Positions 42,142 through 59,107 of a stretch of DNA of 64,000 nt are shown here, one piece after another. The DNA is from an uncultured Planctomycetales bacterium. GTDB taxonomy: Bacteria > Omnitrophota > Gorgyraeia > Gygaellales > Profunditerraquicolaceae. The stretch's first letter is position 1; each line of letters opens with the position of its first letter. Location: NCBI GenBank assembly GCA_964645795.1, contig CAZYCL010000003.1, positions 101,771 through 165,770 on the forward strand, given 5' to 3'. Made by a program: the position numbers and the translations under genes. Below the pieces are notes generated by a model. The model saw only the letters and a program-made list of their open reading frames with translations. It had not been told where the DNA came from and ran no database searches.

Positions 42142-42147
42142 TACGCT

Positions 42148-42184
42148 GGGGACGGTTCTGGGGACAGGTCCCAGAACCGTCCCC
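42148..42184. repeat. Perfect 15-bp inverted repeat hairpin (GGGGACGGTTCTGGG-7nt-CCCAGAACCGTCCCC) between cobU and cobT
   Basis: Exact reverse-complement arms at 42148-42162 and 42170-42184. No T-tract follows. Confidence 0.6.
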
Positions 42185-42200
42185 GCAATACGAGGGTCGG

Positions 42201-44008: not shown

Positions 44009-44697
44009 ATGAACAAGTTGCCCTGTCTTCCTGGAGCGGAGGCAAAGACAGCTGTTTGGCATACTTCAAGGCCATAAACAGCGGCGTCCAGGTAAAGGCC
44101 CTTCTTAATTTCATCGGCCGCGAATCGAAGCGAGGCTGTTTTCATGGCCTAGAGGGCAGGCTTCTAAAGTTCCAGGCCGATCTCATAGGGGTTCCTTTGG
44201 TTCAGAAAGAAGTAAGCCCTGATATGAAGATGTATGAAGGCGAGTTCAAGGCTGCGGTTGAGGAGCTCAAGGCCTCCCGGAAAATAAACTCCATGGTTTT
44301 CGGCGATATTTACCTGCTGGAGCACCAAAGCTGGGTTGAAAGGGTATGCTCGGAGCTTGGAATTAAAGCGGTCGAACCTCTCTGGAACAACGATCCGGAA
44401 AAGATTATCGAAGAGTTTTTGGATGCGGGATTTAGGTCCGTCGTGGTCAGTTGCAAGGCCGATGTCATGGGGCGCGAGTTTATCGGCCGCTTTATAGATA
44501 GGGAGATGGTTAAAGACCTCAAGAAACTCCAAATTTGCCCCTGTGGGGAGAAAGGAGAGTACCATACTTTAGTGGTTGATGGGCCGATATTCAAGAAGCG
44601 CATCGAGATCGCCGAATCCGAGGTGATCAAGAAGGAGAGCTTCTGGACGCACTGGTTTTTGGATATCAAGAGGTACGAAGCGGTAGAAAAGAGCTAA
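43996..44697 (+). CDS. PP-loop ATP pyrophosphatase-like protein of the MJ0570/Dph6 (DUF71) family
   Basis: 233 aa with an N-terminal SGGKDS PP-loop. It is the last gene of the riboswitch-controlled btu-cob operon, ending immediately before the second riboswitch. Confidence 0.6.
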   Translation: MAGMNEQVALSSWSGGKDSCLAYFKAINSGVQVKALLNFIGRESKRGCFHGLEGRLLKFQADLIGVPLVQKEVSPDMKMYEGEFKAAVEELKASRKINSMVFGDIYLLEHQSWVERVCSELGIKAVEPLWNNDPEKIIEEFLDAGFRSVVVSCKADVMGREFIGRFIDREMVKDLKKLQICPCGEKGEYHTLVVDGPIFKKRIEIAESEVIKKESFWTHWFLDIKRYEAVEKS

Positions 44698-44714
44698 AAT
44701 AATCGTTAACTATC

Positions 44715-44850
44715 CGTATGTGCGAAGGAACTCCCGGTGTGATCCCGGGGGCTGCCCCGCAACAGTAATTTAGTTCACAGCCCACTGTCAACTGTCAACT
44801 AATTAGCCTGGTCCATCGTACATAACGGAAAGTACCTTCGCGGGAAGGAA
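44715..44850 (+). promoter_or_regulatory. Second, compact cobalamin riboswitch-like element upstream of btuB
   Basis: It has GGTGtgATCC, GCTGCCCCGCAACAGTAA (consensus GCUGnCCCCGCAACUGUAA) and the AGCCCACTG core. A putative P1 pairs GCGAAGG (44730-44736) with CCTTCGC (44837-44843), with the GGAAAGGAG RBS immediately 3'. The 3' B12-box match (AGCCTGGTCC) is weaker. Confidence 0.55.
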
Positions 44851-44865
44851 AGGAGAATATTTATC

Positions 44866-46707
44866 ATGAACCGGCTTCTGTGTGTATTCATTTCGTTGTT
44901 ATTCATGGGCTGTAACAGCGTTTTTGCGGGTGAGGTCGAGCTTGAGAAGATCGTTGTGACCGCCTCACGGATGCTTCAGCAGGACAGTTCTGTTAACCAA
45001 AAAGTAGACGTTGTAGAAGATAGCCTCATCGAAAGCCGTCAAGCCAATAATCTTGCTAAGGCAATCGAAAGCCTGACCCCGGTCCAGGTGATCAATTACG
45101 GAGGCCTAGGGGCAAGCAAGAGCGTAAGAATGCGGGGGGCTAGCCCTTCGCAGGTCCTGGTCATGGTTGACGGCCGCCCTATCAATAATGCGCGCGACGG
45201 CCAGGCAGAGCTCAATAGCATACAACTGGACAATATCGGGCGAATTGAACTTTTGCGCGGCGCGGCCTCCAGCCTATACGGCTCATCAGCTATGGGTGGC
45301 GTGATAAACCTAATCAGCCGCCCTGTGCCTAAAAAAGGATTCCACAGCGAAATCCATAGCGGCTTCGGGACATTCAGGAGGTATAGCGAACGCCTGCTTC
45401 ATGAAGGCAGGCCAATCCCCCAAATAGGCTACAGCATAAATTATTCTTACAACCATTCGCAGGGCCACAGGAGTAATAGCGATTTTGAAGCAAATAACTT
45501 TAACGCGAAGATAAGCTGCGAACCAACCGATCAAAACAGATTCGAATTTTTGGGAGGAGCCTACAAGGATGAAGCCGGCACTCCCGGACCGGCCAGCTTC
45601 CCCGATGAAGATGACCGCCAGAAATCCAGGAAAAATTACTACGATATAATCTGGGAGTTTGATACCGACGAAAAAACGCAAGTTAAGCTGCGCACTTACC
45701 AGAACTACGACAGGCTAGAGTTCATTGAAAATACTCCGGGCGACTTATGGAGCACGCCTTTTGCCAAAGATATTCATGCTACCAGGCAAAGGGGGCTTGA
45801 TTTTACCGCCAGCCGCGCGTTCTGCGAAAATTTTAGCGCTGTGGGAGGGTTTAATTACGTTGACAACAAAAATGACAGCACGACCTCAGCAAAGCACAAG
45901 TATATCGTAAAAAGCTGGTATTTTACCGGTAAACTCAAGCCTTTGCCGGGCCTTGATCTTGATTTCGGCTCCAGGGTAGACGATTATTCTAACTTCGGCA
46001 GCCAGGTAAGCCCGAATATAGGCATAGGTTGTGATCTGAGAAAGGGTTTGAAGTTTTATGCTTTGACCAGCCGCTCCTTCAGGGCGCCCACGTTTAACGA
46101 CCTTTACTGGCCTGATGAGGGTTGGGCAAAGGGCAACCCTTCCCTGAAGCCTGAAAAAGGCATAAACGGCGAGGCAGGATTCAGGCTCGATTTAGATAAA
46201 CACATCCGGGCCAATCTTTGCTACTTCCGCAGCCGTTACAGCCAGCTTATAAACTGGGTGCCGGATGCATCCGGCTGGGTGTGGTCTCCGACGAACATAG
46301 GCAAGGCGCTTATTGACGGTATCGAATCCGACTTGTCCGTAATGCTGACCGAGGATGTCGGGCTCAGTTTTGGCTATACCTATGTCCGAGCAAAAGACAG
46401 CGATACCCGCAAGTTCCTTATTTATCAACCTAAGCATAAGGCAAAGTTCGGCCTTAAGCATAGCGATATTTACGGTTTTTCTGTCGAATTGAAAGGCGAA
46501 TTCACAGGCAAAGCCTTTCATGATTCCCAGAATGCCACATTCATTGAACGCTACTATCTTCTTGGCTTTAACATCGACAGAAAGATAAACCAACATGCGC
46601 ATTTCTACCTGTCTGTGGATAACCTGCTTAACAAGAAGTATGCAATCGTGCAGGACTATCCCATGCCAGGATTTAGCGTAAACGCGTGCCTTAAGCTTGA
46701 ATTTTAA
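44866..46707 (+). CDS. btuB: TonB-dependent outer-membrane receptor (BtuB-like cobalamin/corrinoid receptor)
   Basis: 613 aa with a signal peptide, TonB box EKIVVTASR, plug domain, 22-strand barrel region, and a C-terminal ...LKLEF ending in Phe. Preceded by a cobalamin riboswitch-like leader. Confidence 0.85.
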   Translation: MNRLLCVFISLLFMGCNSVFAGEVELEKIVVTASRMLQQDSSVNQKVDVVEDSLIESRQANNLAKAIESLTPVQVINYGGLGASKSVRMRGASPSQVLVMVDGRPINNARDGQAELNSIQLDNIGRIELLRGAASSLYGSSAMGGVINLISRPVPKKGFHSEIHSGFGTFRRYSERLLHEGRPIPQIGYSINYSYNHSQGHRSNSDFEANNFNAKISCEPTDQNRFEFLGGAYKDEAGTPGPASFPDEDDRQKSRKNYYDIIWEFDTDEKTQVKLRTYQNYDRLEFIENTPGDLWSTPFAKDIHATRQRGLDFTASRAFCENFSAVGGFNYVDNKNDSTTSAKHKYIVKSWYFTGKLKPLPGLDLDFGSRVDDYSNFGSQVSPNIGIGCDLRKGLKFYALTSRSFRAPTFNDLYWPDEGWAKGNPSLKPEKGINGEAGFRLDLDKHIRANLCYFRSRYSQLINWVPDASGWVWSPTNIGKALIDGIESDLSVMLTEDVGLSFGYTYVRAKDSDTRKFLIYQPKHKAKFGLKHSDIYGFSVELKGEFTGKAFHDSQNATFIERYYLLGFNIDRKINQHAHFYLSVDNLLNKKYAIVQDYPMPGFSVNACLKLEF

Positions 46708-46778: not shown

Positions 46779-47504
46779 TTGTGGCAAAAGCAGCCGGTTT
46801 ATGTTAACTTAAACTGCATGGAATTCACCAGAAGCTTTCAGACTGCTCTTGCTATCTCCATTATAGCCCACACGACGGCGATCCTGCCATTGCCGGGCCT
46901 AAACCGCCTTTCTGAAAACAAAAAGGAAAAAACGCTCGCCGTAAAATATATAAGGCTGCCTAAAGAAAAACGTGAACAGATCCGGCTGGAGGCTAAAACC
47001 CGGGAACGGCTCCTGCCTATCCCCGAGAAGGCTGCCGTCCGGCCAAAACTTCCTGCTCCGGCGCTTACCGACAAAGAGGAGCTGTTTAAGAAGGCCGGTC
47101 CGGGCCAATCCAGGACAGCTCAGCTTAACAAGCCTGCCGTAGCCAATAGCGACGTCATCTCCATAAGGAAAAAGATATCCCTGCCTCCGGTAGACCTTGA
47201 TAAGATCGATAACCCTTCCTATATCGGCTACTACCAGCTGATCCGCGAGAAGATCAAGCGCGCCGCTTACCAGAATTATTCTCGCAGCGACTGCGGTGAC
47301 GTATATATCTCTTTCGTGATCTCTTCCGACGGCCATTTGAAAAACCTGATCCTCAGCGGCGAAAAATCCTCCTCTAACAATTATTTAAAACAAATCGCGG
47401 TTCAAAGCGTCAAAGACGCTTCGCCTTTCCCGAATTTCCCTAAAGAGCTGGATTACCCCCAGCTTTCCTTTAACGTCATCATTTCTTTTGAGATAGACGG
47501 ATAA
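46779..47504 (+). CDS. tonB: Energy transducer TonB
   Basis: 241 aa with an N-terminal TM anchor, a Pro/Lys-rich spacer (PIPEKAAVRPKLPAP) and a TonB_C domain. Possible alternative start at the Met at 46818. Confidence 0.75.
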   Translation: MWQKQPVYVNLNCMEFTRSFQTALAISIIAHTTAILPLPGLNRLSENKKEKTLAVKYIRLPKEKREQIRLEAKTRERLLPIPEKAAVRPKLPAPALTDKEELFKKAGPGQSRTAQLNKPAVANSDVISIRKKISLPPVDLDKIDNPSYIGYYQLIREKIKRAAYQNYSRSDCGDVYISFVISSDGHLKNLILSGEKSSSNNYLKQIAVQSVKDASPFPNFPKELDYPQLSFNVIISFEIDG

Positions 47505-47515: not shown

Positions 47516-48208
47516 ATGATCGATGTCAGCGTAATTCTGCCCTGCCTTAATGAAGAGAGGACCGTAGGCGTTTGCATCGACAAGATCCAGCAGGCCTTCC
47601 GGGACAGCCGCATAACCGGCGAGGTGATAGTCGTAGATAATAATTCTTTTGACGGGTCTGCACAGATAGCCCTCCAAAAAGGGGTGAAGGTGCTTCATGA
47701 AGATAAACAAGGCTACGGTAACGCGTACTTAAAGGGCCTGTCGCAAGCGCAAGGGAGAACCGTTATTTTTGGAGATATCGACAACACCTATGATTTCCGT
47801 GAAATTCCGCGTCTTTTGGATGCGATGAAAAAGAACAGCTGCGGCGCGGTAAACGGAAGCCGGTTCATGGGAAGGATAGAGCCGGGGTCTATGCCCTGGC
47901 TGCATCAATATATAGGGAATCCGTTTTTCACGGGATTATTCAATATTTTATTCGGTGCCGGGTTATCCGACCTGCTAAGCGGGTTTAAGGCTGTCAGCAG
48001 AGAGCGCCTGGATACCATCCACCTCAAAGAAACGGGAATGGAATTTATCGCTGAATTGGCGATAAAGCTGATAAAATCCGGCTGCCGGATAGAAGAAGTG
48101 CCCATAACCTATTGCCCCAGGAATAAAGATTCAAAGTCGAAGTTGAATACCTTTAGAGACGGCTGGAGGTATCTTAAGTTCATATGGACGGCCCGCTGGT
48201 CAGCATAA
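47516..48208 (+). CDS. Family 2 glycosyltransferase, soluble DPM1/GtrB-like polyprenol-phosphate sugar synthase
   Basis: 230 aa with GT-A DxD motifs (VSVILPCLNEE...VVDNNSFDGS...FGDIDN). Confidence 0.75.
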   Translation: MIDVSVILPCLNEERTVGVCIDKIQQAFRDSRITGEVIVVDNNSFDGSAQIALQKGVKVLHEDKQGYGNAYLKGLSQAQGRTVIFGDIDNTYDFREIPRLLDAMKKNSCGAVNGSRFMGRIEPGSMPWLHQYIGNPFFTGLFNILFGAGLSDLLSGFKAVSRERLDTIHLKETGMEFIAELAIKLIKSGCRIEEVPITYCPRNKDSKSKLNTFRDGWRYLKFIWTARWSA

Positions 48209-49164
48209 TCATACCGGCACGCAATGAGGCGGCCAACATAGAAAGATGCCTTGGCGCCCTTAGGCGGCAGACTTACCCAAAGATAGAGATTGTCGTAATT
48301 GATAACTGCAGCACGGACAACACGGCCCTTTTGGCCCAAGGGCTGGCCCATAAGGTCGTCGATGAACGGCGCAAGGGGATCGTTCATGCCAAAAACGCCG
48401 GCATAAAGGCTTCTTCAGGAGATCTGGTGGCCACAATCGACGCCGATTGCCTGGCCCGGGAAGATTGGATCAAAGAGCTGCTGCCATGTTTTGAAGATGC
48501 CGGTGTTGCTGGCGCCGGCGGACCCAATATTGCCCATGAAAATTCCGGGGCTATCCAGGGCTACATCGATGCTTTAATGCTTTTGCTATGCAAATGGATA
48601 GGCTCAAGATATGTAACGCAGGACACCCTGCGCAGGGACGTTACTCATATACCCGGCTGCAACGCTATATACAGAAGGACAGTATTGGATAAACTTGGCG
48701 GTTTTGACCCCAGGCTCCTTACCGTTGAAGACGAAGAGCTTGACTACCGCATCCTTGCGGCTGGCCACCGGATCATCTACGTTCCTTCTGCCGTGGTCTT
48801 CCACCGGCGCAGGGGCGACTGTCTAAGTTTTGCCCGCCAGATTTACAGGTATGCTATCGGCAGGATGCAGTTTATCAGGCTCCACCGGCTCTACCTTAAG
48901 CAGTTCCCCAGAATCCTGCCCTCTATTTTACTGATGTCAGCCGCCCTGCTTGTTATCGCAGGTTTTTTCGTCCCGGGGCTTTCAAGGCCGCTTGAGTTTT
49001 TAGCGTTTTCTTGCACGGCCTCACTTGCGGCGGCGTCTTTATATTTATGCTTCACAAGCCGAAAGGCTAACCCATTTATTTTTATGCTTTTGTTTGCGGT
49101 TGCTTTTTTCGCCTGGGGATCGGGCATGATCAGGGGATTGGCGTATCCGTACGAGGAATCTTAG
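48184..49164 (+). CDS. Family 2 glycosyltransferase with C-terminal TM helices (GtrB-like)
   Basis: 326 aa with GT-A motifs (VSIIIPARNEA...VIDNCSTDNT...TIDADC) and two or three C-terminal TM segments. Confidence 0.75.
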   Translation: MDGPLVSIIIPARNEAANIERCLGALRRQTYPKIEIVVIDNCSTDNTALLAQGLAHKVVDERRKGIVHAKNAGIKASSGDLVATIDADCLAREDWIKELLPCFEDAGVAGAGGPNIAHENSGAIQGYIDALMLLLCKWIGSRYVTQDTLRRDVTHIPGCNAIYRRTVLDKLGGFDPRLLTVEDEELDYRILAAGHRIIYVPSAVVFHRRRGDCLSFARQIYRYAIGRMQFIRLHRLYLKQFPRILPSILLMSAALLVIAGFFVPGLSRPLEFLAFSCTASLAAASLYLCFTSRKANPFIFMLLFAVAFFAWGSGMIRGLAYPYEES

Positions 49165-49165
49165 G

Positions 49166-50296
49166 ATGAGGTTCATAAACCAATTTGATACTATATTGCG
49201 CTACATCGCCGGTGTGCCTAAAGCCGGCTTGCCTCAACAGGTCTATTGGGTAATAAATGAAGAGTGCAATCTCAAATGCCGGTTCTGCAATTTTTGGAAA
49301 GGTATTTACCGCGAGGATGGCCGCAGGCCTCTTTCAACGGCCAACATAAAATCGATAATTGATAAAGCTTCGCGAGCCGGCATACCCTACCTGCTTTTCA
49401 CCGGAGGCGAGCCTTTCCTGAGGCCCGATCTGCCTGAAATACTGGAATATGCCGCAAAAAGGATGCCTTGCGTGCGGGTCCAGACTAACGGGACCCTGCT
49501 GACAGACGCGAAACTCCAAGCCATCGTAAATAGAAGATCCCTGGATGAGCTATGGATTTCCGTCGACGGTATCGGGTCTACGCACGATAGGTTCCGCGGA
49601 TGCGAGGGCATCTTCGAAAAAGTCATTGGCGCCCTGAAATCGATCGACCTTTTGAAAAAGAAGCATTCTGCCAGGCTGCCGTATATAGTAGTGCATACCG
49701 TGGTCAACAAAGAATGCATGGAAGAACTGCCGCAAATACTCAAAATCTGCGATGATTACAATGTCAATGAATGGTTCCTCAGCTATTTGACCGATGTCAG
49801 TGAATCGGCGGTCGCTGCTACAAACGGGATTTTAAAACGAGACTGCGTTTATTCCGGGCAGATGCAGCAGGGAGGGGACCAGGCTACCGGCGATCTGCGG
49901 ATTTCCGATGATATGCTCAAATCGATAAGAGAAGCCAGAAAAAAAGGCCTGGTCGTCTACATTGACCCGTTCCTGCTGGACGGATACGGCCGGCGCCCCA
50001 GAGAGAAATGCCTCCTGCTATGGTCGAGCATGATGGTTTCTCCTTACGGCGAGCTTCTGGTCTGCCCGATGCTTGACAAATGCCGCATGGGGAATCTCCT
50101 GGAAAACGAAATACCGGTAATCTGGAACAGCAAGGAATTCATCGAAATAAGGAAAAAGGTCATTTCCAGGGACGTGCCTCTATGCGAAGAATGCTGCGTG
50201 CAGCGCAGGACCATATGGTCTCAGTTTAAGGATCCGGCTAATTTCAGCCGTATTTTAATCCCAAGAGGCGTGCGCCAACGCCTTTACCGAAGATAA
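49166..50296 (+). CDS. Radical SAM enzyme with a SPASM/twitch auxiliary Fe-S domain
   Basis: 376 aa with CNLKCRFCNFW (CxxxCxxC) and a C-terminal Cys-rich SPASM-like region (CLLLWS...LLVCPMLDKCRMGNL...CEECCV). Confidence 0.8.
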   Translation: MRFINQFDTILRYIAGVPKAGLPQQVYWVINEECNLKCRFCNFWKGIYREDGRRPLSTANIKSIIDKASRAGIPYLLFTGGEPFLRPDLPEILEYAAKRMPCVRVQTNGTLLTDAKLQAIVNRRSLDELWISVDGIGSTHDRFRGCEGIFEKVIGALKSIDLLKKKHSARLPYIVVHTVVNKECMEELPQILKICDDYNVNEWFLSYLTDVSESAVAATNGILKRDCVYSGQMQQGGDQATGDLRISDDMLKSIREARKKGLVVYIDPFLLDGYGRRPREKCLLLWSSMMVSPYGELLVCPMLDKCRMGNLLENEIPVIWNSKEFIEIRKKVISRDVPLCEECCVQRRTIWSQFKDPANFSRILIPRGVRQRLYRR

Positions 50297-50316
50297 CCGG
50301 GCCATTTGATAGAGAA

Positions 50317-51735
50317 ATGAAAATACTTCTTCTAAGCCCTCCTTTCGTAAAAGGATTCGCCCGCAACGGCAGATGCGATTATGTCACCTGGTCGGGTACC
50401 CAGTGGTATCCGATATGGTTGGGGTATTGCGGAGGGTTGCTTGAGAAAAATAACCACAAGGTAAAACTTATCGATGCGCCGGCAATGAGGATCGGCTTTA
50501 AAGAAACACTGAGAGCCGTAAAAGAGTTCAAGCCCGATCTTGTGACGGTTTACAGTTCAACCCGCAGCCAGAAAAGCGACATCGATTTCTTAAAGGAAAT
50601 CAGGTCGCGCTTTTTTGGGCGCATAATTCTTGCCGGGCCTTATGTATCGGGAATAGAGGAAGAGCTCTTAAAATCAAACAACAGCATAGACGGGGTTGTC
50701 AGAGGAGAATTTGAATATCCGCTCCTTAAGATGGCCGGCGGTTCGCGCGAATCCGAAATCGATAACCTCATTTGGAGAAAAGGCTGCGAGGTATTCTCCA
50801 ATCCCATGCGGGGGCCGCTTACCGGCAGTGAACTGGATAGCCTTCCTTTTGTTACCGATTTCTATGCGCGCCACCTTGACCTAAGAAATTATCACGTACC
50901 TTCGGAGCTTTTCCCATTTCTGGACCTGTTTACCGGAAGGGGCTGCGCATGGGGAAGGTGCATTTTTTGCCTCTGGCCGCACGCATTTATAAAAGGCCCG
51001 GCCTATGCCACCCGCAGCATCAATAATGTTATGGAGGAGTTGGATTTTGTGGCCAGAAAGCTTTCGTCTATACGGCAAGTATTTTTCCAGGACGACACTT
51101 TGCCGGCGCACAGAGCTACGGAGCTATCAGAAGCGATCCTAAAGCGGCGGATAAAGCTGACCTGGGGATGTTATGTCAGGGCGGATACGAGCTATGAAAC
51201 CCTAAGGCTTATGAAAAAGGCGGGTTGCCGCACGCTGCATGTCGGCTATGAGAGCGGGGTTCAGGCTTTGCTTGATACCATTAATAAAGGAATTACCCTG
51301 CAACAGATGCATGAATTCAGCAAGAATTCCCGTAAGGCCGGCTTGAGGGTGCACGGTGACTTCCTCTTTGGCCTTCCCGGAGAAACCAGGGACTCCCTGC
51401 GCACGACCATAAATTGGGCGATCAACCTTGATCCGGAGACAGCCCAATTCCTTAAAATAAATTTATACGGTTCAACGCCTGTCTATGGAATGCTTGAAAG
51501 CGCAAGTTTTCATAAAAAAGGAGTTTACGAACGGGCCGCGGTCACGGACAAAGAGATTGACGATTTCATCAGGCAGGCATACCGAAAATTCTATTTAAGG
51601 CGGGGTTTCATGAAAAGATTATGCCTGTACCCATTCGAATATTGTTTCAGGCAGATCCCCGCAGTAGAACAAATGATAAAAAGAATGCTTTTTGGCCCTG
51701 ACCGGCCATATTCGCAAGCAGCGGATCAGAGATGA
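50317..51735 (+). CDS. Cobalamin-binding radical SAM enzyme (class B, B12-binding domain + rSAM)
   Basis: 472 aa with an N-terminal B12-binding Rossmann-like domain (MKILLLSPPF...), then GRGCAWGRCIFCLWP. Confidence 0.8.
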   Translation: MKILLLSPPFVKGFARNGRCDYVTWSGTQWYPIWLGYCGGLLEKNNHKVKLIDAPAMRIGFKETLRAVKEFKPDLVTVYSSTRSQKSDIDFLKEIRSRFFGRIILAGPYVSGIEEELLKSNNSIDGVVRGEFEYPLLKMAGGSRESEIDNLIWRKGCEVFSNPMRGPLTGSELDSLPFVTDFYARHLDLRNYHVPSELFPFLDLFTGRGCAWGRCIFCLWPHAFIKGPAYATRSINNVMEELDFVARKLSSIRQVFFQDDTLPAHRATELSEAILKRRIKLTWGCYVRADTSYETLRLMKKAGCRTLHVGYESGVQALLDTINKGITLQQMHEFSKNSRKAGLRVHGDFLFGLPGETRDSLRTTINWAINLDPETAQFLKINLYGSTPVYGMLESASFHKKGVYERAAVTDKEIDDFIRQAYRKFYLRRGFMKRLCLYPFEYCFRQIPAVEQMIKRMLFGPDRPYSQAADQR

Positions 51736-54578
51736 AAACAAGAACGGTTATATTGATAGGTTTGGCCGCACTATGCTCCCAATTGCTGGTAAACCAACAT
51801 ATCATGGGCAATTCCAGGCTGCTTAGGCCTAGTGACCAGGAGCAGAGGATGCTGGAGAGCATCGAAGTTTTTAAAAACTTATCGGAAGGGAATCTGGTCG
51901 CCTGCCTCAAGCAGGCAACGAGTTTCAATCTGCAAGGCCCGGCCCATCCCAAGTTGTTTTCTTTTGTCCAGGGAGTATTCTTATTCCTGATTAGCAGACC
52001 GGGTCATTGCGATTATGAACTTATGATCCTGACCACCAATATGTTCTACCTTTTGTTACTTTTTATCGCTGTGTTCGGCATAGGCGCCATGCTGGCCGAC
52101 AGAAAAACCGGCCTATTTGCCGCGGTAACGGTCCTATTCTCACCCGTAGTCTTTAGCTTCTCGCGGGCAAGCATGCTGGACCTTTCCCTTGCCGCGATGG
52201 TCGCGTTAACGTTCTTTTGCCTTCTTAGGACCAGGCAGTTTGAATCACTTATATTTACCATCCTGACCGCCCTGATGTTCTTCTTCTCGCAGCTGACCAA
52301 AGAGACCGCCTGGATTTTTGTCTTTCCGGTATTAGCGTATTACACGCTAAACTCCCTTACCCAAAGAAAACGCCTTGCGGCGCGCCTGCCTAATCTACTC
52401 TTGTTTGCGGCAGTTTTCTCTCTGCTGTTAGCAGGCATTTTCTTTACCAACCGCTTTGCGGCCGGAGCCCTGCGCAGCTATTATAATGTTTTTTACTATA
52501 ACTGCTGTCACTATGACCTGTTTTATGCTGACGCGCTTCTGAGGGCATATCTTGGGGTTGCCCTCTCAATATGCGTTATCCCATTATTGCGGAGATTGCC
52601 TTCCTGTTTGCGTAAAACAGGGCCTTTGCTTTTATTATGGGCGATAGTCCCTTTCCTGGTATTTTCCGTCCTATCTTTCAAAGCCGCCCGTTATCTTATG
52701 CCTATAGTGCCGGCGCTCTTTTTAACGGTAGCCATTTTGGTCTTCAGCATCAATAACAGCTATTACAGGCGCATTTATGTATGTTTACTGGCCCTTGTAA
52801 TAGCAGCTCAATACATAGGCCTTAATTTTTTCAACAAGCAGTGTTATCTGGACGAAGGGATATACTGCGCTACTGAAGACGAAAATTATTACTGGTCCGG
52901 CAAGCTGATCGAAATCTTTCGCGAAGAGCGGCCCCTTGACCCCGAAATAAACTGGCGGATCTTGGTTATATTTGACCTGGGGGCCCACGCGCCTCTATAC
53001 AGGGAGGTTGCCCTCAAGAGGATGCCGTTTGAAATATCTGTCCCGGCCGAAGACGAAGAGTATACAAAATTCCATAATTTTGAATTCTCCGATTGCGAGA
53101 ATTTGATACTCTGCGCGGATTATATCGTAGATAAAACAGGGGTTTTATCAAGCTCGCCATTTCATGCCGTCCTCGCCGGCTGCCTACAGGAGGCGTTTAA
53201 TAAAAATAAGTCGGTTTTCACTGAAATATCCTCTTTTGGCCTTGATAATGGGGACCGTGTTTTTATCTATAAAAAGGACATGCAAAAAGCCCTGGAATAT
53301 TTTACCGCGACCTTAAAGCTTGCGCCCGAATATCTGATAGCCTATGAAAGATTGGGTTGGATCCATAGAAGGCTGGGCGAATCATGCGAAAGCAGGTCTC
53401 TTGCCGATGAAGCCCGTGCTCACTTCAACAAATCGCTTCAGCTCTACCCCGCTAATCCGCAGGCATACCTGAGACTTGCCCAGAATTTGCTTAAAAACAA
53501 AAAGTTTGATGCGGCGATCGATAGTTTCAATAAGGCCCTGGCGTTAAAACCCGACTGCGCGGAGGCCTATAATGGGCTGGGCTGGGCATGCAGAGAAATG
53601 GGGCGGCTGGGTCAAGCCGAGGATTATTTTGATAAAGCCTTAAAGATCAAATCCGATTTCACGGCTGCGTTGATCGGGCTTGGATGGATATATCACTTGA
53701 AAGGCTGCCTTCCGGAGGCAGAGAAGTGTTTTTACAGGTCCATTGGCCTCGATCGCCAAGACAGAGAGGCTTATATCGGCCTGGGATGGAATTACCATAA
53801 AATGGGCAACTTCCCTAAGGCTGAGGAGGCTTTTAAGAAGGCGCTTGAACTCAGTCCTGACTACGCCGAAGCCTACAAGGGCCTGGCCTGGACCTATCGC
53901 AGCCAGGGCAAGCTCAAGGAAGCGGGGGAGTGCATCGATAAGTGGTTGAAGACCCATCCAGGTTCGTCAGAAGCCTATTGTATTTTAGGATGGTCTCGCC
54001 ATGTGGAAAACAAGCTCTCTGAAGCCGAAAGACTCTTTCAAAAAGCCATACAGCTTGATTCCAAGAACCGCGAAGGCTATATCGGCCTGGGATGGAATTA
54101 CCATAAAATGGGCAACTTCCCTAAGGCTGAGGAGGCTTTTAAGAAGGCGCTTGAACTCAGTCCTGACTACGCCGAAGCCTACAAGGGCCTGGCCTGGACC
54201 TATCGCAGCCAGGGCAAGCTCAAGGAAGCGGGGGAGTGCATCGATAAGTGGTTGAAGACCCATCCAGGTTCGTCAGAAGCCTATTGTATTTTAGGATGGT
54301 CTCGCCATGTGGAAAACAAGCTCTCTGAAGCCGAAAGACTCTTTCAAAAAGCCATACAGCTTGATTCCAAGAACCGCGAAGGCTATATCGGCCTGGGATG
54401 GAATTACCATAAAAGCGGTAAATTCAATGAAGCGCAGAAGGCCTTTAAACAGGCCCTGGCCCTTAGCCCCGGCTATGCCGAGGCATATAAAGGCCTGGCC
54501 TGGACCTATCGCAGCCAGGGCAAGCTCAAGGAAGCGGCACAATATTTAGAAAAGGCCGGTAAAAAAGTCGATAAATGA
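51732..54578 (+). CDS. Polytopic GT-C-type (PMT/ArnT-like) membrane glycosyltransferase fused to a C-terminal TPR array
   Basis: 948 aa. The N-terminal ~480 aa have ~11 TM helices with GT39/ArnT-like loops. The C-terminal ~450 aa are TPR repeats (GLGW.YH..G.F..A...F.KAL.L.PD.AEAY). Confidence 0.65.
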   Translation: MKTRTVILIGLAALCSQLLVNQHIMGNSRLLRPSDQEQRMLESIEVFKNLSEGNLVACLKQATSFNLQGPAHPKLFSFVQGVFLFLISRPGHCDYELMILTTNMFYLLLLFIAVFGIGAMLADRKTGLFAAVTVLFSPVVFSFSRASMLDLSLAAMVALTFFCLLRTRQFESLIFTILTALMFFFSQLTKETAWIFVFPVLAYYTLNSLTQRKRLAARLPNLLLFAAVFSLLLAGIFFTNRFAAGALRSYYNVFYYNCCHYDLFYADALLRAYLGVALSICVIPLLRRLPSCLRKTGPLLLLWAIVPFLVFSVLSFKAARYLMPIVPALFLTVAILVFSINNSYYRRIYVCLLALVIAAQYIGLNFFNKQCYLDEGIYCATEDENYYWSGKLIEIFREERPLDPEINWRILVIFDLGAHAPLYREVALKRMPFEISVPAEDEEYTKFHNFEFSDCENLILCADYIVDKTGVLSSSPFHAVLAGCLQEAFNKNKSVFTEISSFGLDNGDRVFIYKKDMQKALEYFTATLKLAPEYLIAYERLGWIHRRLGESCESRSLADEARAHFNKSLQLYPANPQAYLRLAQNLLKNKKFDAAIDSFNKALALKPDCAEAYNGLGWACREMGRLGQAEDYFDKALKIKSDFTAALIGLGWIYHLKGCLPEAEKCFYRSIGLDRQDREAYIGLGWNYHKMGNFPKAEEAFKKALELSPDYAEAYKGLAWTYRSQGKLKEAGECIDKWLKTHPGSSEAYCILGWSRHVENKLSEAERLFQKAIQLDSKNREGYIGLGWNYHKMGNFPKAEEAFKKALELSPDYAEAYKGLAWTYRSQGKLKEAGECIDKWLKTHPGSSEAYCILGWSRHVENKLSEAERLFQKAIQLDSKNREGYIGLGWNYHKSGKFNEAQKAFKQALALSPGYAEAYKGLAWTYRSQGKLKEAAQYLEKAGKKVDK
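53772..54414. repeat. Perfect 306-bp tandem duplication (about 2.1 copies) inside the TPR-coding region
   Basis: 53772-54108 is nucleotide-identical to 54078-54414 (period 306 bp = 102 aa = three TPRs). This produces the identical shadow ORFs in the minus-strand track (53640-53957, 53985-54263, 54291-54542). Confidence 0.9.
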
Positions 54579-55705
54579 CAGGATTATTCGCTGGTGATTT
54601 CAAAGCCGTATACCTGGCTTTACTTTTCCTGGTATGGTGGAGCTACCAGGGTTATTTTATTTACTTGTATACGCATGCACGCAAGCCCCGTGAAAACTCA
54701 CCCGATCCAAACAGGCATTTCTTTACCATCGTCGTACCTGTTTTTAACGAGAAGGAGCTTATTGAAGCGAAGGTCGAAAATCTCAGGCGCCTCAGAGGAG
54801 GGAATTACGAAGTTTATTTTTCAGACGCCTCTTGCGATGAAACCTCCAAGATGATCAATAATCTTATTGACGGTTTGGACAATTTCAAGCTGATCCGGGC
54901 AGAGTATCGTAGCCGCAGCTTCCAGATCAATCAAGTTTTGTGCAGAGCTAAAGGAGACTTGATACTTATCAGCGACTGTGACGGACTTATCAGCGAAGAT
55001 GCGCTGGAAAAAATATCGGCAGAATTCGCTGACCAGGATACGGCCGTGGTCGGGGCCTACGTTGTGCCGCGCACCGGCTACGTCAAAGATATCCGATTCT
55101 GGACGGTCCAAAACAGCATGCGCAGCCTTGAAAGCTCTTATGGGCACGCTTCGACGGCAGTGGGTGTCTGTTACGCCTTTCGTAAGGATCTGTTAAGCCG
55201 CATCCCCGATGACTCGCTGGCAGAAGACATATACATATCGCTATTTGCCAACTTCAAAGGTCGACGCACCGTTTACTCGGCGGATGTAATCGCTTATGAG
55301 TTGCGATTCCCGCGCAATTTCAAGCAATTCCTGAAACACAAGATCGCTAAAGCAGAAAACAACATCACGGAGATGTTCAGGTTCCTGCCTTGCGTATGGA
55401 GTGCCGGCGCAAAGTGGTTGATAGTTTATCTTACCAGGCTCAGCCAGATAGCCATACTGCCCATACTTGTTTATGCCTTTTTTTACCTGGCATTCTTTCA
55501 AAAACCAACGATGATCTTTTTCAGCGCATGCCTTCTGTTTTTCTCAGGCATAGCGCAGTTGCATATAATCTCAAAAATCAAGAAAGAGCAAACGAGGTTA
55601 AACCTGGCGCAGGTAATAGAGATAGCTGCATTGACCAATTTAATTCTTTTTATCGCGATAATTAAACACTTCGTTTTGAGAAGGAAAGTCTATACGCGCA
55701 TATGA
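54575..55705 (+). CDS. Integral-membrane family 2 glycosyltransferase (processive synthase-like topology)
   Basis: 376 aa with two N-terminal TM helices, a GT-A catalytic core (IVVPVFNEKE...DASCDE...SDCDG) and 3-4 C-terminal TM helices. Confidence 0.7.
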   Translation: MTGLFAGDFKAVYLALLFLVWWSYQGYFIYLYTHARKPRENSPDPNRHFFTIVVPVFNEKELIEAKVENLRRLRGGNYEVYFSDASCDETSKMINNLIDGLDNFKLIRAEYRSRSFQINQVLCRAKGDLILISDCDGLISEDALEKISAEFADQDTAVVGAYVVPRTGYVKDIRFWTVQNSMRSLESSYGHASTAVGVCYAFRKDLLSRIPDDSLAEDIYISLFANFKGRRTVYSADVIAYELRFPRNFKQFLKHKIAKAENNITEMFRFLPCVWSAGAKWLIVYLTRLSQIAILPILVYAFFYLAFFQKPTMIFFSACLLFFSGIAQLHIISKIKKEQTRLNLAQVIEIAALTNLILFIAIIKHFVLRRKVYTRI

Positions 55706-55709
55706 GCAT

Positions 55710-57140
55710 ATGGATGTATTGATCTTAAACGGGCCGTTCATCAAGGATTTTTGCAGAAATCAACGCTGGCCCGCAAGAACAAGGGCAAGGGTGCTGCGGC
55801 CCCCGGATTGGCTATGTTACGCAGCCGCCGTACTCAAAAAAGAAAGTTTAAGCGTCTCGCTTTACGATTTTGTCGCCAGGGGTTGGGATAAAGACAGGCT
55901 GGCCGAGATTGCACGCCGGGAAAAACCCGATTTCGTCGTTATTGACTCTTCCACGCCTTCGATATATTCAGATATCGAGTGCGCCTGGATATGCAAGTCC
56001 AATTCGCGGGCCAAGGTCATAATGGTTGGCACTCACGCTACGGCTTTCCCGCGGGAAACCCTCATGGCGGCAAAGGGAAGCATTGACGTTATCGCGCTGG
56101 GAGAATATGACCATACTATAAGCGATATCATCCGGTCCTGGCCGCGTCTTGAAGGGGTGCGCGGGGTAGCTTATCTAAGGCAAGGGAAAACGGAATTTGG
56201 CGCCTGCCGGCCGCTTATCGATGATTTAGACAGCCTTCCTTTCCCGGCATGGCATTACCTGGATATATACAGCTATTTTGACGCAGGAAGGCTTTATCCC
56301 TATATAAATATTATCGGCGGGCGGGGCTGCCCATACCAATGCTCTTTTTGCCAGTGGCCTCAGCTTATGTTCGGCCACCAGTACCGTTTTCGTTCGCCGA
56401 AAAACATCGTTGACGAAATCGAGTACGACCTCTCGCTCTTCCCGGGCCTTAAAAAGGGCGAGTTTTTCTTCGAAGACGACACATTCACAGTCAATAAAGA
56501 GCGGGCGGAGCTTATCACTGAGGAAATCAGCCGGCGAGGCCTGGGCATAACCTGGTCTGCCAATTCGCGGCCGGATATTCTTGATCCGGGGCTGTTTCGC
56601 AAGATGAAACTGTCGGGCTGCCGAGAATTGCTGGTTGGGTTTGAATCCGGAGACCAGCACATTCTCGATAACATCAAGAAGAACCTGAAACTGGAGCACT
56701 CTTGGGAGTTTGTTAGGCTGGCCAGGGAAGCCGGGTTACAGGTGCACGGTTGTTTTGTCCTCGGACTTCCGGGAGAGACAAAGGAGTCGGCCGCCAGAAC
56801 CATAGAGTTTGCCCTGAAGCTTGGTATCGATACCCTGCAGTTCTCGGCCGCAGTGCCTCTGCCGGGTTCGGAGTATTTTGACTACTGCCAAAAACAAGGG
56901 CTCCTGAAAGCTTCATCCTGGGACAACTGGCTTGAAGGGGGAGAGCAGGGGGCGGTAGTCGAGTATCCGGGGCTGAGCATAAAAGACATCAACCGCATGG
57001 TTGATGACGGATTAAAAAGATTTTATCTGAATCCGCGGTTTATCCTCAAATCGCTTGCCTCTAGCCGCGGCCTCCGTGATGTTTTCTGCAAGGCCAGGGG
57101 CGGCTTCAATTTTCTTTCCTACCTGCTTAATCGCAGTTGA
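55710..57140 (+). CDS. Cobalamin-binding radical SAM enzyme (class B), paralog of 50317-51735
   Basis: 476 aa with the same architecture (MDVLILNGPF...; GGRGCPYQCSFCQWP) and alignable with the other copy throughout. Confidence 0.8.
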   Translation: MDVLILNGPFIKDFCRNQRWPARTRARVLRPPDWLCYAAAVLKKESLSVSLYDFVARGWDKDRLAEIARREKPDFVVIDSSTPSIYSDIECAWICKSNSRAKVIMVGTHATAFPRETLMAAKGSIDVIALGEYDHTISDIIRSWPRLEGVRGVAYLRQGKTEFGACRPLIDDLDSLPFPAWHYLDIYSYFDAGRLYPYINIIGGRGCPYQCSFCQWPQLMFGHQYRFRSPKNIVDEIEYDLSLFPGLKKGEFFFEDDTFTVNKERAELITEEISRRGLGITWSANSRPDILDPGLFRKMKLSGCRELLVGFESGDQHILDNIKKNLKLEHSWEFVRLAREAGLQVHGCFVLGLPGETKESAARTIEFALKLGIDTLQFSAAVPLPGSEYFDYCQKQGLLKASSWDNWLEGGEQGAVVEYPGLSIKDINRMVDDGLKRFYLNPRFILKSLASSRGLRDVFCKARGGFNFLSYLLNRS

Positions 57141-57143: not shown

Positions 57144-57171
57144 TTGACATATATCATTTAAATGATATAAT
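57144..57171 (+). promoter_or_regulatory. Consensus sigma-70 promoter for rpsU (-35 TTGACA, 16 nt, -10 TATAAT)
   Basis: TTGACA at 57144-57149 and TATAAT at 57166-57171. The spacer contains the perfect palindrome TCATTTAAATGA. Confidence 0.6.
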
Positions 57172-57206: not shown

Positions 57207-57368
57207 TTGCCGCAGATCGAAGTAAGAAAGGACGAGCCGTTTGAGGCGGCCCTTCGCCGTTTCAAGAAAAAGATCGAACAGGAGGGCATCCTCAAAGAGG
57301 TGCGCGACCGCAAACACTACGAAAAACCCAGCGAACGCAAAAGAAAGAGGGCCAAGGGTAGAAGATAG
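57207..57368 (+). CDS. rpsU: 30S ribosomal protein S21
   Basis: Absent from the ORF track because it has a TTG start and is only 53 aa. It reads [53 protein letters not shown], a textbook S21. AAAGGAG RBS 7 nt upstream. Confidence 0.85.
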
Positions 57369-57369
57369 A

Positions 57370-58299
57370 ATGCCTGTTTCCTTGTCCACCGCCTGGAACG
57401 CATGGAGGCATTCGGACGGGTACTCCATGCTCTTTGAAATCAAGGAATTAGGTTTTGGGGATGCGGAATTGAGCTTTAACATCGGCCCCGATATGATACA
57501 GGGAATTAAGCGCGCCGTAGATGAGGGGTTGATCAGGATATCCAGCATCCATAACACCTGCCCTACCCCGGACGGCCTGCCCAGGTTTCAGGCGCTTCCT
57601 GACCACTATTCGATGTCCTCTGCTGAATCCGATAAAAGGGCGTTGGCTGTCAAATTCGCTAAAAAAAGCCTTGATACGGCCCGCCTACTCGGCGCCAGGG
57701 TACTTGTCCTGCACTGTGGCAGGGTCGAGATCCCGGACAGAACCCGCCAGATGATCGAGCTTGCTGACGCAGGGCTGCTAAATTCCCGCGAATTCCAGGA
57801 GATCCGAACTCATGCTATCCTGGAAAGAGAAAGGGCTTCAGCTCCGTTTTTAGAAAATACATTGCGCAGCCTCGAAGAAATATCCGATTACGCTAAAGTA
57901 TCCGGCATCTTACTCGGCATCGAAAACAGGTTCTACTACCGCGAGATACCGGCTTTTGATGAGATCGCGGTCATTTTAGACAAACTCAAAGGGGCCAATC
58001 TTTTTTATTGGCACGACACCGGACACGCCCAGATCATGAATGCGCTGGGACTCGGGCCGCCCCAGAAAGAATCCCTTGCCGCTTTCGGCGACTCAATCAT
58101 AGGCTTTCACCTGCACGATGTATCCGGCTTAAAAGACCACCTTGCGCCTTCGAAAGGGACGATCGATTTCAAGATATTCTCGCCATACCTAAAGAAGGAT
58201 GTGATAAAAGTAATTGAGGCGCACAGCCCGGCGGACACAATAGACATTGATAACAGCAGGAAGATGCTTGTCTCCCTATGCCAAGATGAATGCCGATGA
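57370..58299 (+). CDS. Xylose-isomerase-like TIM-barrel protein (sugar phosphate isomerase/epimerase family)
   Basis: Start at the ATG at 57370, in frame with the track ORF 57241 whose N-terminus overlaps rpsU. Metal-ligand motifs LGIEN, WHDTGHA and HLHD are present. Confidence 0.7.
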   Translation: MPVSLSTAWNAWRHSDGYSMLFEIKELGFGDAELSFNIGPDMIQGIKRAVDEGLIRISSIHNTCPTPDGLPRFQALPDHYSMSSAESDKRALAVKFAKKSLDTARLLGARVLVLHCGRVEIPDRTRQMIELADAGLLNSREFQEIRTHAILERERASAPFLENTLRSLEEISDYAKVSGILLGIENRFYYREIPAFDEIAVILDKLKGANLFYWHDTGHAQIMNALGLGPPQKESLAAFGDSIIGFHLHDVSGLKDHLAPSKGTIDFKIFSPYLKKDVIKVIEAHSPADTIDIDNSRKMLVSLCQDECR

Positions 58300-59107
58300 T
58301 ATAAGGGAAGCGATAGTTGCGGGAAAATTTTACCCGGCTTCAGCTCAAGGAATACGAAAACAGCTGGGTTCGTTCATTGAAACTGAGGGCGTCAATACCG
58401 ACGCCTACGCGTGCGTCCTGCCCCACGCAGGATACCTTTATTCTGGCAAAGTCGCTACCCAGACCGCCTCGCAGGTACTCATAAAAGATACGGTCATTCT
58501 TCTGGGGCCCAACCATACCGGATACGGAAAGCCGTTCAGCATCATTTCCAGCGGAACCTGGCAGACGCCCCTGGGGGACATCGGGATCGATACCGGATTT
58601 GCTGCCTCGCTTCTGGGTTCCTCCAAGCTGCTTAAAGAAGACCGCTCGGCGCATGCTTACGAACATTCATTGGAGGTAGAGCTGCCGGTTTTGCAATATT
58701 TCAGGGCCGACTTCAAGATCGTCCCTATCAGCATAGCAAGCGCCAGCCTTAAGGAGCTTAGGGATTTGGGTGAGGAGCTCTCGGCTGCCCTTACCAGGGC
58801 GAACAAGAAAAGATCCGTCCTTATTGTTGCCAGCTCCGATTTTTCTCATTATGAGCCGCTTGAAGTCGCCCGGGAGAAAGACTCCAAGGCGATCAAGGCA
58901 ATCCTTGAGCTTGATGAAGAGCTTCTTTTTGAAAATGTGAAAAAGTTCGACATATCCATGTGCGGCTGGGCGCCGGTGGCCGCCGCGATTTGCTGTTCAA
59001 AAAGGTTAGGGGCAAAAAAATCGCGCCTGGTCGCCTATCAGACCAGCGCCGACCAGACTCATGACGAAACCAGCGTTGTAGGTTACGCCGGTATAATAAT
59101 CTACTAA
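58286..59107 (+). CDS. MEMO1-family protein (AmmeMemoRadiSam system protein B-like)
   Basis: Start at the internal Met (MNADDIREAIVAGKFYP...). MEMO motifs AGKFYP and LPHAGYLYSG. Metal/His residues conserved. Confidence 0.7.
   Translation: MNADDIREAIVAGKFYPASAQGIRKQLGSFIETEGVNTDAYACVLPHAGYLYSGKVATQTASQVLIKDTVILLGPNHTGYGKPFSIISSGTWQTPLGDIGIDTGFAASLLGSSKLLKEDRSAHAYEHSLEVELPVLQYFRADFKIVPISIASASLKELRDLGEELSAALTRANKKRSVLIVASSDFSHYEPLEVAREKDSKAIKAILELDEELLFENVKKFDISMCGWAPVAAAICCSKRLGAKKSRLVAYQTSADQTHDETSVVGYAGIIIY

Follow-up and report, generated by a model that had tools for sequence, protein, structure and literature searches.

A seven-gene cluster joining GT2 and GT-C glycosyltransferases with three radical SAM enzymes in an uncultured Omnitrophota bacterium

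What could a cell be making with a gene cluster in which glycosyltransferases of the kinds that handle lipid-linked sugars stand side by side with three radical S-adenosylmethionine (SAM) enzymes? The question is raised by a 64,000-nucleotide stretch of contig CAZYCL010000003.1 from an uncultured Omnitrophota bacterium (the window), in which a first-pass annotation, made by reading the letters, had proposed a candidate periplasmic glycosylation or modification system. The list of open reading frames (ORFs) confirmed the seven ORFs that it had named, all co-directional on the plus strand at positions 47516-57140, and we found no characterized pathway that matches their combination, as the annotation had surmised. 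Comparison with other genomes shows a conserved functional association of family 2 glycosyltransferases (GT2), a glycosyltransferase of the GT-C type and radical SAM enzymes, the neighborhood pattern that the annotation had suggested looking for. The combination is rare in cultured organisms and widespread in uncultured lineages, and the cluster is a member of an undescribed class, not a one-off. Its product is probably a chemically modified surface sugar. Extracytoplasmic glycosylation from polyprenyl phosphate is a logic of a known kind; the radical tailoring layer is new.

The genes of the cluster and their parts are as follows.

47516-48208, plus strand: GT2a, a 230-residue GT2 (Pfam Glycos_transf_2)
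48184-49164, plus strand: GT2b, a 326-residue membrane GT2 (Pfam GT2 families)
49166-50296, plus strand: SPASM radical SAM protein, 376 residues (Pfam Radical_SAM and SPASM)
50317-51735, plus strand: B12a (Pfam B12-binding and Radical_SAM)
51732-54578, plus strand: GT-C/TPR protein, 948 residues (Pfam PMT_2, then tetratricopeptide repeats, TPRs)
51732-53300, plus strand: GT-C domain of the 948-residue protein (fold model, transmembrane helices)
53301-54578, plus strand: C-terminal TPR domain of the 948-residue protein (TPR_1)
53767-54537, plus strand: tandem repeat, 306 bp × 2.5, 93% identical (Tandem Repeats Finder, score 1344)
54575-55705, plus strand: GT2c, a 376-residue membrane GT2 (Pfam GT2 families)
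55710-57140, plus strand: B12b (Pfam B12-binding and Radical_SAM)

Cluster layout and glycosyltransferases

Pfam matches of the seven proteins exceed the curated cut-offs, and every domain that had been predicted (PMT_2, TPR, Radical_SAM with B12-binding, and SPASM) was found, including three radical SAM enzymes of which two are of the B12 type. The genes are tightly packed: GT2a and GT2b overlap by 25 nt, ATGA overlaps occur at the B12a/GT-C and GT-C/GT2c junctions, and the remaining intergenic gaps measure 1 to 20 nt, which leaves no space for a flippase or precursor gene inside the cluster. No flippase domain was detected in the seven proteins (Pfam, NCBIfam) and no precursor peptide gene in the cluster, in agreement with the annotation's remark that precursor and transporter are missing. 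From the three-component periplasmic logic that it had drawn, the donor GT2 and the GT-C are thus present and the flippase is missing from the cluster. GC content, third-position GC content and tetranucleotide composition are similar to those of the rest of the window (roughly 1 to 1.5 standard deviations), and recent horizontal transfer of the cluster was rejected on this ground.

GT2a (Glycos_transf_2, 83.5 bits) has as its best NCBIfam family AglJ (TIGR04182, 146 bits versus a cut-off of 325), followed by the Halo Dol-P hexose transferase family (93 bits versus 375). Its best solved relative is the Pyrococcus furiosus dolichyl-phosphate mannose synthase (DPMS; 5mlz, E = 3.6e-15, residues 3-224), to which it is homologous over the full GT-A catalytic domain, and no transmembrane segment is predicted in its 230 residues. 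GT2a would therefore seem to be a soluble polyprenyl-phosphate hexose synthase-like enzyme of the DPMS/AglJ type. The two DPM1/GtrB-like synthases of the first-pass annotation are reduced to this one, as GT2b is a membrane GT2 of the MftF/AglG type.

GT2b has transmembrane segments at residues 240-317 (two to three C-terminal helices), and its NCBIfam matches, MftF (152 bits) and AglG (64.5 bits versus 440), both stay below cut-off; against the PDB it matches the membrane GT2 6yv7 (E = 4.8e-12). GT2c has one N-terminal transmembrane helix, a GT-A domain and about four C-terminal helices. Its Pfam GT2 families include Glyco_transf_21 (39.4 bits), its NCBIfam matches lie far below cut-off (PgaC, 69.9 bits; HpnI, 26 bits versus 310), and its PDB match is again 6yv7, a membrane mannosyltransferase (E = 8e-12). 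By these matches GT2b resembles the MftF/AglG/EpsD/minimal cellulose-synthase type and GT2c appears PgaC/GT21/HpnI-like, both of them resembling the kind of membrane GT2 that extends lipid-linked glycans.

The 948-residue protein had been read as a polytopic GT-C/PMT-like transferase, and this assignment held. PMT_2 (PF13231) matches residues 96-229 modestly (30.0 bits versus 26.1, E = 6.9e-7), and the relatives of the GT-C in loci L003, L004 and L014 score 38-47 bits on it. A word-indexed homology search with residues 1-523 gave zero matches, which reflects an artifact of sensitivity or candidate selection, because an exhaustive HMMER search of 1.84 billion representatives found 1377 relatives, 53 of them at E<1e-30. 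None is more than 35% identical, and since most are about 520-535 residues long and lack TPRs, the window protein represents a small GT-C family fused to a TPR array. Searching a profile of the family against PDB sequences returned ArnT alone, and not significantly (E = 0.11), so that structure comparison was needed. An AlphaFold model built from an alignment of 34 family members (pLDDT, 88.7; pTM, 0.89) retrieved ArnT as the top Foldseek match (E = 6.8e-8, TM-score 0.63), followed by ALG12 and STT3/PglB/AglB, and the 14 best structural matches are all enzymes that use polyprenyl- or dolichyl-linked donors carrying one or two phosphates. A multispanning membrane module, a long first extracytoplasmic loop and an extracytoplasmic C-terminal domain are all present. 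As modeled, the membrane domain is confirmed as a true GT-C of predicted ArnT/ALG12/PMT-like fold.

Two other identities were considered for this protein and rejected. An ArnT (GT83) orthologue does not fit the E value of 0.11 and the lack of arn genes nearby; the ArnC/ArnT system further differs from the cluster in that no ArnA, ArnB, ArnD, ArnE or ArnF genes are found here, ArnC gives 31 bits on GT2a, and ArnT carries no TPRs. The O-antigen ligase identity, against which the first-pass annotation had wanted the protein checked, falls away because Wzy_C has no match in the protein even at E≤10 and the model matches GT-C folds; the structural matches listed include no O-antigen ligase, and those that are strong are GT-Cs.

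D35, R145, D150, K190/E191 and R320 are conserved across the 34 family members. D35, the acidic residue of the first extracytoplasmic loop, is kept in at least 90% of them, including the window protein, where the residue that follows is Q and not the E of the family ("DE" to "DQ"). The model helices, read against the sequence, give 11 transmembrane helices, with the Arg/Lys-rich loops all on one side, which in the model points to an N-in, C-out topology. This positive-inside pattern would leave the N terminus in the cytoplasm and give a periplasmic location to the conserved residues, the TPRs and an alpha/beta domain. The fold and the adjacent DPMS-like GT2 together suggest a polyprenyl-(di)phosphate-linked donor.

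The TPR region that had been put at about 450 residues is present and somewhat shorter, with about 12 repeats in about 420 residues (residues ~530-948; TPR_1, 248 bits over 9 stretches). From the 11-helix positive-inside pattern and the GT-C architecture it is predicted to be periplasmic, and it is likely to serve as an acceptor- or partner-binding module. The tandem repeat within it is a recent duplication of a three-TPR unit, seen as duplicated blocks of 102 residues in the translation. The public short-read contigs that carry the cluster (L001 and L002) both stop about 35 nt into this repeat, and its copy number in the window may for that reason be uncertain.

A GT-C followed by C-terminal TPRs is also the design of TMTC1-4, which are associated with protein-specific O-mannosylation (PMC7801869). 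The window protein is like them in having a PMT_2-type GT-C and then a long luminal or periplasmic TPR array. Unlike them, it shows no detectable DUF1736 or TMTC-specific motif, has "DQ" and not "DE" in its first loop, and takes its membrane domain from a small prokaryotic family whose other members are TPR-free; its donor, unlike that of TMTC, is presumably a modified sugar.

Radical SAM enzymes and their substrates

The SPASM protein matches Radical_SAM with 77 bits and SPASM with 41.8 bits and reaches the cut-off of no NCBIfam family. Among solved structures, the closest to it is that of the sugar-acid decarboxylase BlsE (7vob, E = 4.7e-14), with SkfB second and BtrN also found (1e-5). The radical SAM core begins at residue ~31, no PqqD or RiPP recognition element (RRE) match was obtained (Pfam, NCBIfam), and there is no N-terminal peptide-recognition domain.

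B12a and B12b match the B12-binding family with 39.3 and 40.3 bits (cut-off, 32.1) and Radical_SAM with 60 and 76.3 bits, respectively; these domains and three invariant Cys residues mark them as predicted class B (cobalamin-binding) radical SAM enzymes. The cluster-binding motif of B12a is CX4CX2C (GRGCxWGxCxFC), with a one-residue insertion shared by the whole alignment of seven B12a-type sequences, made up of the window protein and six orthologues, and B12b and true HpnJ have the canonical CX3CX2C. For both proteins the nearest characterized family is HpnJ (TIGR03471), on which B12a scores 311 bits and B12b 348 bits, the next-best NCBIfam families giving 109 bits for B12a and 150 bits (BchE) for B12b. 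As positive controls, true HpnJ proteins from Geobacteraceae metagenome-assembled genomes (MAGs; L005 and L006) reach 718-720 bits. B12a and B12b are full-length homologues of HpnJ at 30-34% identity, with the FCLWP motif in common; their identity to the Geobacteraceae proteins is 33-34%. Since they lie far below the cut-off of 577.6 bits and have low identity to true HpnJ, they are HpnJ-like paralogues and not HpnJ; HpnJ identity was rejected on the scores and on the lack of a hopanoid gene context. The nearest solved structure for both is the sugar diol-dehydratase AprD4 (6fd2; E = 3.4e-24 for B12b).

At E≤1e-40, B12a has 2612 homologues (the best 55% identical) and B12b has 2164. The matches listed for B12b comprise 119 non-self sequences that share 56-70% identity with it. 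Their source names cover at least 10 lineages, among them Omnitrophota, Elusimicrobiota, Caldiserica, Dehalococcoidia, Nitrospirota, Sumerlaeota and Deltaproteobacteria, and one entry is a Thermoproteota archaeon. B12b is the most conserved component of the system. The exact B12a sequence was found only in one NCBI contig and two Logan assemblies (ERR4524290 and ERR14964780).

The first-pass annotation had described the cobalamin-dependent enzymes as a class that typically performs C-methylation, and to read C-methylation from this is too quick. HpnJ, and by analogy calditol synthase, is proposed to contract a lipid-linked hexose (for HpnJ, a lipid-linked glucosamine) to a five-membered carbocycle (PMC13459092), and HpnJ has been grouped with the non-methylating B12 radical SAM enzymes (in a review). 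Because HpnJ is the nearest family by a wide margin, C-methylation is one option and not the default. The proximity to HpnJ, the solved relatives AprD4, BlsE and BtrN, and the lack of an RRE point to sugar or lipid-linked substrates for the radical enzymes, although this is read from homology. MoeK5 (moenomycin), GenK and GenD1 are likewise B12-binding radical SAM enzymes that act on sugars; these sit in secondary-metabolite clusters, whereas the window enzymes belong to envelope loci that contain a GT-C. The sugar substrate of MoeK5 is lipid anchored.

SPASM radical SAM enzymes and B12 radical SAM C-methyltransferases are typical maturases of peptides made by ribosomes and modified after translation (RiPPs), and a cluster in which they cross-link and C-methylate a ribosomal peptide that the glycosyltransferases then glycosylate would fit the weak NCBIfam matches to RiPP methyltransferase and sactipeptide families and the second place of SkfB among the solved relatives of the SPASM protein. 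Those family scores, however, are far below that of HpnJ, the gaps have no room for a precursor gene, and neither an RRE/PqqD-like domain nor a protease or exporter was detected in the cluster (Pfam, NCBIfam). In other phyla, moreover, the partners are sugar-pathway genes, and no conserved small ORF lies near family members in the loci read. With no precursor, RRE or exporter, a RiPP maturase cluster was rejected, and we regard a glycopeptide product as scarcely credible.

The radical enzymes might instead modify the polyprenyl chain of the carrier by methylation, cyclization or saturation, giving the GT-C a specialized carrier, and not touch the sugar. Many recently characterized lipid-modifying radical SAM enzymes act on isoprenoid chains (PMC13459092), and a ladderane-associated lipid B12 radical SAM family scores 97-103 bits on the B12 enzymes. 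Families for isoprenoid lipids nevertheless score much below HpnJ, the nearest solved relatives act on sugars, and the position of B12b, interleaved between two glycosyltransferases, fits a step of glycan assembly, so that carrier modification is very improbable.

Recurrence in other genomes and a proposed pathway

We read about 16 neighborhoods, all picked by homology to the query genes. The closest counterpart is L014, an Omnitrophica MAG with the order same-family GT-C (965 residues, 250 bits on the GT-C family hidden Markov model), AglJ-like GT2, GT2b orthologue (42% identical), SPASM orthologue (51%, collinear) and B12a orthologue (53%). Together with seven further loci from Saccharibacteria, Aenigmatarchaeota, Omnitrophota, Altiarchaeota and other MAGs, it makes up a set of eight loci with a B12a orthologue, all of which have GT2 genes and six of which have a PMT/PMT_2-type GT-C. 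These loci usually also have extra B12 radical SAM paralogues, epimerases or dehydratases of the short-chain dehydrogenase/reductase (SDR) type and class I methyltransferases, and some have Wzx-like or LPG_synthase_TM proteins, a WecA-type initiating transferase and GT4s. Relatives of GT2c (30-37% identical) adjoin B12a-type genes in L015, L016, L021 and L022. The set GT2b-SPASM-B12a with the same GT-C family recurs in Omnitrophota, and it is found in a looser form in two archaeal phyla and Saccharibacteria. In BLASTP the window GT-C showed no significant similarity to the Saccharibacteria PMT_2 protein, and the two belong to different GT-C families in the same kind of cluster.

B12b belongs to a second arrangement. 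L024 and L025 contain a fixed block of STT3, a GT2a orthologue (45% identical, with an extra GT2_TM_C domain), B12b (65-69%) and a GT2b-like GT2, and a Dehalococcoidia locus has the order GT2, B12b, GT2 amid nucleotide-sugar genes. GT2b orthologues are 42% identical in L014 and L003 and 32-34% identical beside B12b orthologues. These comparative loci indicate that the window cluster consists of two recurrent modules, one of GT2a, B12b and a GT2b-type enzyme and one of GT2b, SPASM protein, B12a and GT-C, in one operon, and recurrence of orthologous sets in unrelated phyla places the grouping of the seven genes beyond chance.

As a reciprocal test, metagenome loci were fetched by the GT-C family alone (an alignment of 7 sequences, 4 loci returned), and every one of them with usable flank carries radical SAM genes. 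In total, four loci that carry this GT-C family have usable flank, and radical SAM genes are present in all four. L017 has two GT-Cs, a B12 radical SAM enzyme, a SPASM radical SAM enzyme, two GT2s, a GT4 and a phosphoglycosyl transferase; L019 has the GT-C, a SPASM radical SAM enzyme and a TPR protein. In L018 (1-19037), with two same-family GT-Cs, one B12 radical SAM enzyme and at least nine tandem SPASM paralogues, the system's radical component is expanded to an extreme. The partner genes conserved in other phyla code for STT3, Wzx, phosphoglycosyl transferases, UDP-glucose dehydrogenases and SDR epimerases. The Wzx-like flippase, initiating phosphoglycosyl transferase, SDR epimerases and GT4s of some relatives are hallmarks of lipid-linked glycan assembly.

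How might the seven enzymes work together? The reading that we favor, at somewhat better than even confidence, is a pathway like archaeal Agl in which a polyprenyl-phosphate glycan is built, tailored by the radical enzymes and handed by the GT-C to a periplasmic acceptor. GT2a would load a hexose onto polyprenyl phosphate at the cytoplasmic face, and B12b would alter this lipid-linked sugar, a placement chosen because B12b always stands between a GT2a orthologue and a GT2b-type enzyme in other phyla. GT2b and GT2c would add one or more further sugars, which the SPASM enzyme and B12a, traveling with GT2b, would tailor. To reach the outer face, the product could use a flippase whose gene lies outside the cluster, or the membrane domains of the GT2s. 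There the GT-C would move the sugar or glycan from carrier to acceptor, using Asp35 and the charged residues that face the periplasm, and its choice of acceptor, in all likelihood a protein, would fall to the TPR domain in the periplasm, as in GT-C/TPR enzymes of the TMTC type. Carrier, order of steps, sidedness and acceptor are all inferred.

The Agl pathway of Haloferax volcanii starts with AglJ, which loads dolichol phosphate with its first sugar; AglG, AglI and AglE extend the lipid-linked glycan, a tailoring enzyme modifies it, and GT-C enzymes act on the outer face (PMC3871713). The likeness is that GT2a has AglJ as its best curated match and GT2b matches AglG, that tailoring takes place during assembly, and that a GT-C acts outside, the partner in L024 and L025 being STT3, as is AglB. 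The differences are that the scores are below cut-off (146 versus 325 bits for AglJ, 64.5 versus 440 for AglG), that three radical SAM enzymes stand in place of the class I methyltransferase of Agl, and that the window GT-C is ArnT/ALG12-like with a TPR tail and not STT3, in a bacterial host with an outer membrane. In three-component systems (GtrA/GtrB/GtrC; GT136 pentofuranose), the lipid-linked sugar may be altered by auxiliary epimerases ahead of its transfer (Kelly et al. 2024, PMC11127046). The cluster shares with these the pairing of a polyprenyl-phosphate sugar synthase with a periplasmic GT-C. It differs in having no flippase (GtrA, MATE or Wzx) and two extra membrane GT2s, in having radical SAM enzymes in the epimerase's place, and in a GT-C of another family with TPRs and not a carbohydrate-binding module; the relatives with Wzx-like or LPG_synthase_TM genes are in this respect unlike the window cluster.

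Several points weigh against the Agl-like pathway. The pathway is predicted from genes. No cluster protein reaches an NCBIfam curated equivalog cut-off, and the assignments are therefore at the superfamily or nearest-family level. The flippase gene is absent, and GT2a lacks the transmembrane domain that its closest orthologues carry. The recurrence is drawn from homology-sampled contexts and is not a statistical enrichment test. A protein acceptor is a guess specific to this gene, because most members of the GT-C family have no TPRs. The reactions of HpnJ and Cds are themselves proposed from genetics (PMC13459092), and a sequence similarity network at a stringent threshold co-clusters HpnJ with the methylases MoeK5 and Fom3 (from the review that groups HpnJ with the non-methylating enzymes), so that homology does not tell which type of radical reaction takes place; the candidates are decarboxylation, oxidation or epimerization, C-methylation and the contraction of the ring to a cyclitol.

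The same relatives raise the alternative of a lipid head-group pathway of the HpnI/HpnJ type, in which GT2b and GT2c glycosylate a resident membrane lipid (a hopanoid polyol, diacylglycerol, a ceramide-like or another lipid), each HpnJ-like enzyme makes a cyclitol-type ether (cf. the bacteriohopanetetrol [BHT] cyclitol ether and calditol), and the GT-C decorates the lipid at the outer face, the product being a glycolipid. Cds and HpnJ are precedents for radical SAM head-group chemistry (PMC13459092), and HpnJ is the closest characterized family for both B12 enzymes. A membrane GT2 adjoining a B12-binding radical SAM enzyme is common to both systems, as each membrane GT2 of the cluster lies one or two genes from one, an echo of the hpnI-hpnJ pairing, and the model enzyme acts on a lipid-anchored hexose. 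In addition, GT2b and GT2c both match Glyco_transf_21, GT2c matches HpnI weakly, and the GT2b-like partner of B12b in L024 matches HpnI with 36.5 bits. Yet the window scores for HpnJ (311 and 348 versus 577.6) and HpnI (26 versus 310) are low, true HpnJ reaches about 720 bits in L005 and L006 and lies beside HpnK in L006, and the cluster has no HpnK-like deacetylase and no hpn or shc neighbors; hopanoid or lipid-synthesis genes were found neither within 10 kb nor in the part of the window that was sampled. Such a pathway has no need of the DPMS-like GT2 and the GT-C (including STT3), which are conserved partners. Finally, several lineages that host the system are Saccharibacteria or belong to Aenigmatarchaeota and Altiarchaeota, archaeal phyla of small cells, and many lineages of these types are without de novo lipid synthesis. 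On balance we consider a head-group pathway unlikely.

At 8038-12401 of L006, a Geobacteraceae MAG, the gene for a small AglJ/PpgS-like GT2 has a genuine hpnJ-hpnK pair (718 and 347 bits) about 1.2 kb downstream of it; the two are separated by a short unassigned ORF (9006-9536). A link between HpnJ-type enzymes and GT2s resembling polyprenyl-phosphate-sugar synthases may thus extend to hopanoid loci.

A more specific form of the Agl-like reading has the B12 enzymes turn polyprenyl-phosphate hexoses into carbocyclic (cyclitol-type) or C-branched sugars, which GT-Cs (ArnT-like here, STT3 elsewhere) transfer to periplasmic or surface proteins or envelope polymers; this we put forward as speculative and rather improbable. 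If true, there would be a widespread, unseen set of radical-made glycan units in Omnitrophota and many other bacterial phyla, coupled here to a B12 uptake and salvage operon; related clusters are those of two archaeal phyla and of Saccharibacteria.

We found no description in the literature, of which our coverage is incomplete, of radical SAM enzymes as core partners of GT2/GT-C glycosylation loci, and in no described GT-C glycosylation from lipid-linked donors do B12 and SPASM radical SAM enzymes form a conserved part of the core. Close homologues in the B12b family alone number more than 2,000, and such conservation implies one conserved and probably important reaction. Solving this chemistry would give a function to many "radical SAM protein" annotations in uncultured lineages, a biochemical handle on HpnJ/Cds-type sugar chemistry, so far inferred from genetics, and possibly a new kind of cell-envelope sugar. 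The window, from a Gram-negative-type genome with B12 supply genes adjoining the cluster, may be a more practical entry than the versions in candidate phyla.

Upstream B12 genes and other features of the window

The features that flank the cluster are as follows.

38104-38296, plus strand: cobalamin riboswitch (62.9 bits), heading btuF, btuC, btuD, cobC, cobU, cobT and cobS
38380-44697, plus strand: btuF-btuC-btuD-cobC-cobU-cobT-cobS operon region
44866-46707, plus strand: BtuB-like TonB-dependent receptor (TIGR01779, 214 bits, below cut-off; Pfam Plug and TonB_dep_Rec)
about 46818-47504, plus strand: TonB-family protein (tonB_Cterm, 30.2 bits versus 27.1; gene call in L001)
57144-57171, plus strand: sigma-70 promoter (promoter scan; 12/12 match, extended -10 TG, TTGACA-16-TATAAT)
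57207-57368, plus strand: rpsU, ribosomal protein bS21, 53 codons with a TTG start (translation; bS21 in the PDB, E = 5e-15)

The genes for the BtuB-like receptor and the TonB-family protein lie at the end of the riboswitch-led btuFCD-cobCUTS operon, and the latter ends 11 nt before the start of GT2a. The two genes are probably cotranscribed with the cluster. The pair is absent from all related loci and is not part of the conserved system. We do not claim the riboswitch at 38104-38296 as a regulator of the cluster. A second, riboswitch-like element (44709-44831, plus strand; 16 bits versus 31.5, E = 0.43; core CCCGGUG...GCUGCCCCGCAAC) lies directly upstream of the BtuB-like receptor; if this element works, B12 could affect transcription that continues into the B12-dependent cluster. 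Within the cob operon, a gene for an ATP pyrophosphatase like Dph6 or diphthine-ammonia ligase (43996-44697) is unusual for a bacterial cob operon.

The 3' edge of the cluster is sharp, with the sigma-70 promoter starting 3 nt past the stop codon of B12b. The rpsU gene that follows is not among the listed ORFs, which have an 80-residue minimum, and the listed 352-residue ORF at 57241-58299 extends too far across it; the TIM-barrel gene after rpsU probably begins at the ATG at 57370. This xylose-isomerase-like gene, on which the cobamide-remodeling family CbiR scores weakly (21 bits versus a cut-off of 105), is followed by the gene for AmmeMemoRadiSam system protein B (58247-59107, plus strand, 298 bits).

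Elsewhere in the window, a c-di-GMP-I-GGC riboswitch aptamer (20253-20333; 68.7 bits against a gathering score of 59) is found on the minus strand, a short way upstream of a plus-strand block with an alginate-export-type porin gene. EF-P, AroQ, PepP, CobT and three other window proteins are singletons at 90% identity in a collection of 15 billion proteins, and the host organism is one without a sequenced close relative.

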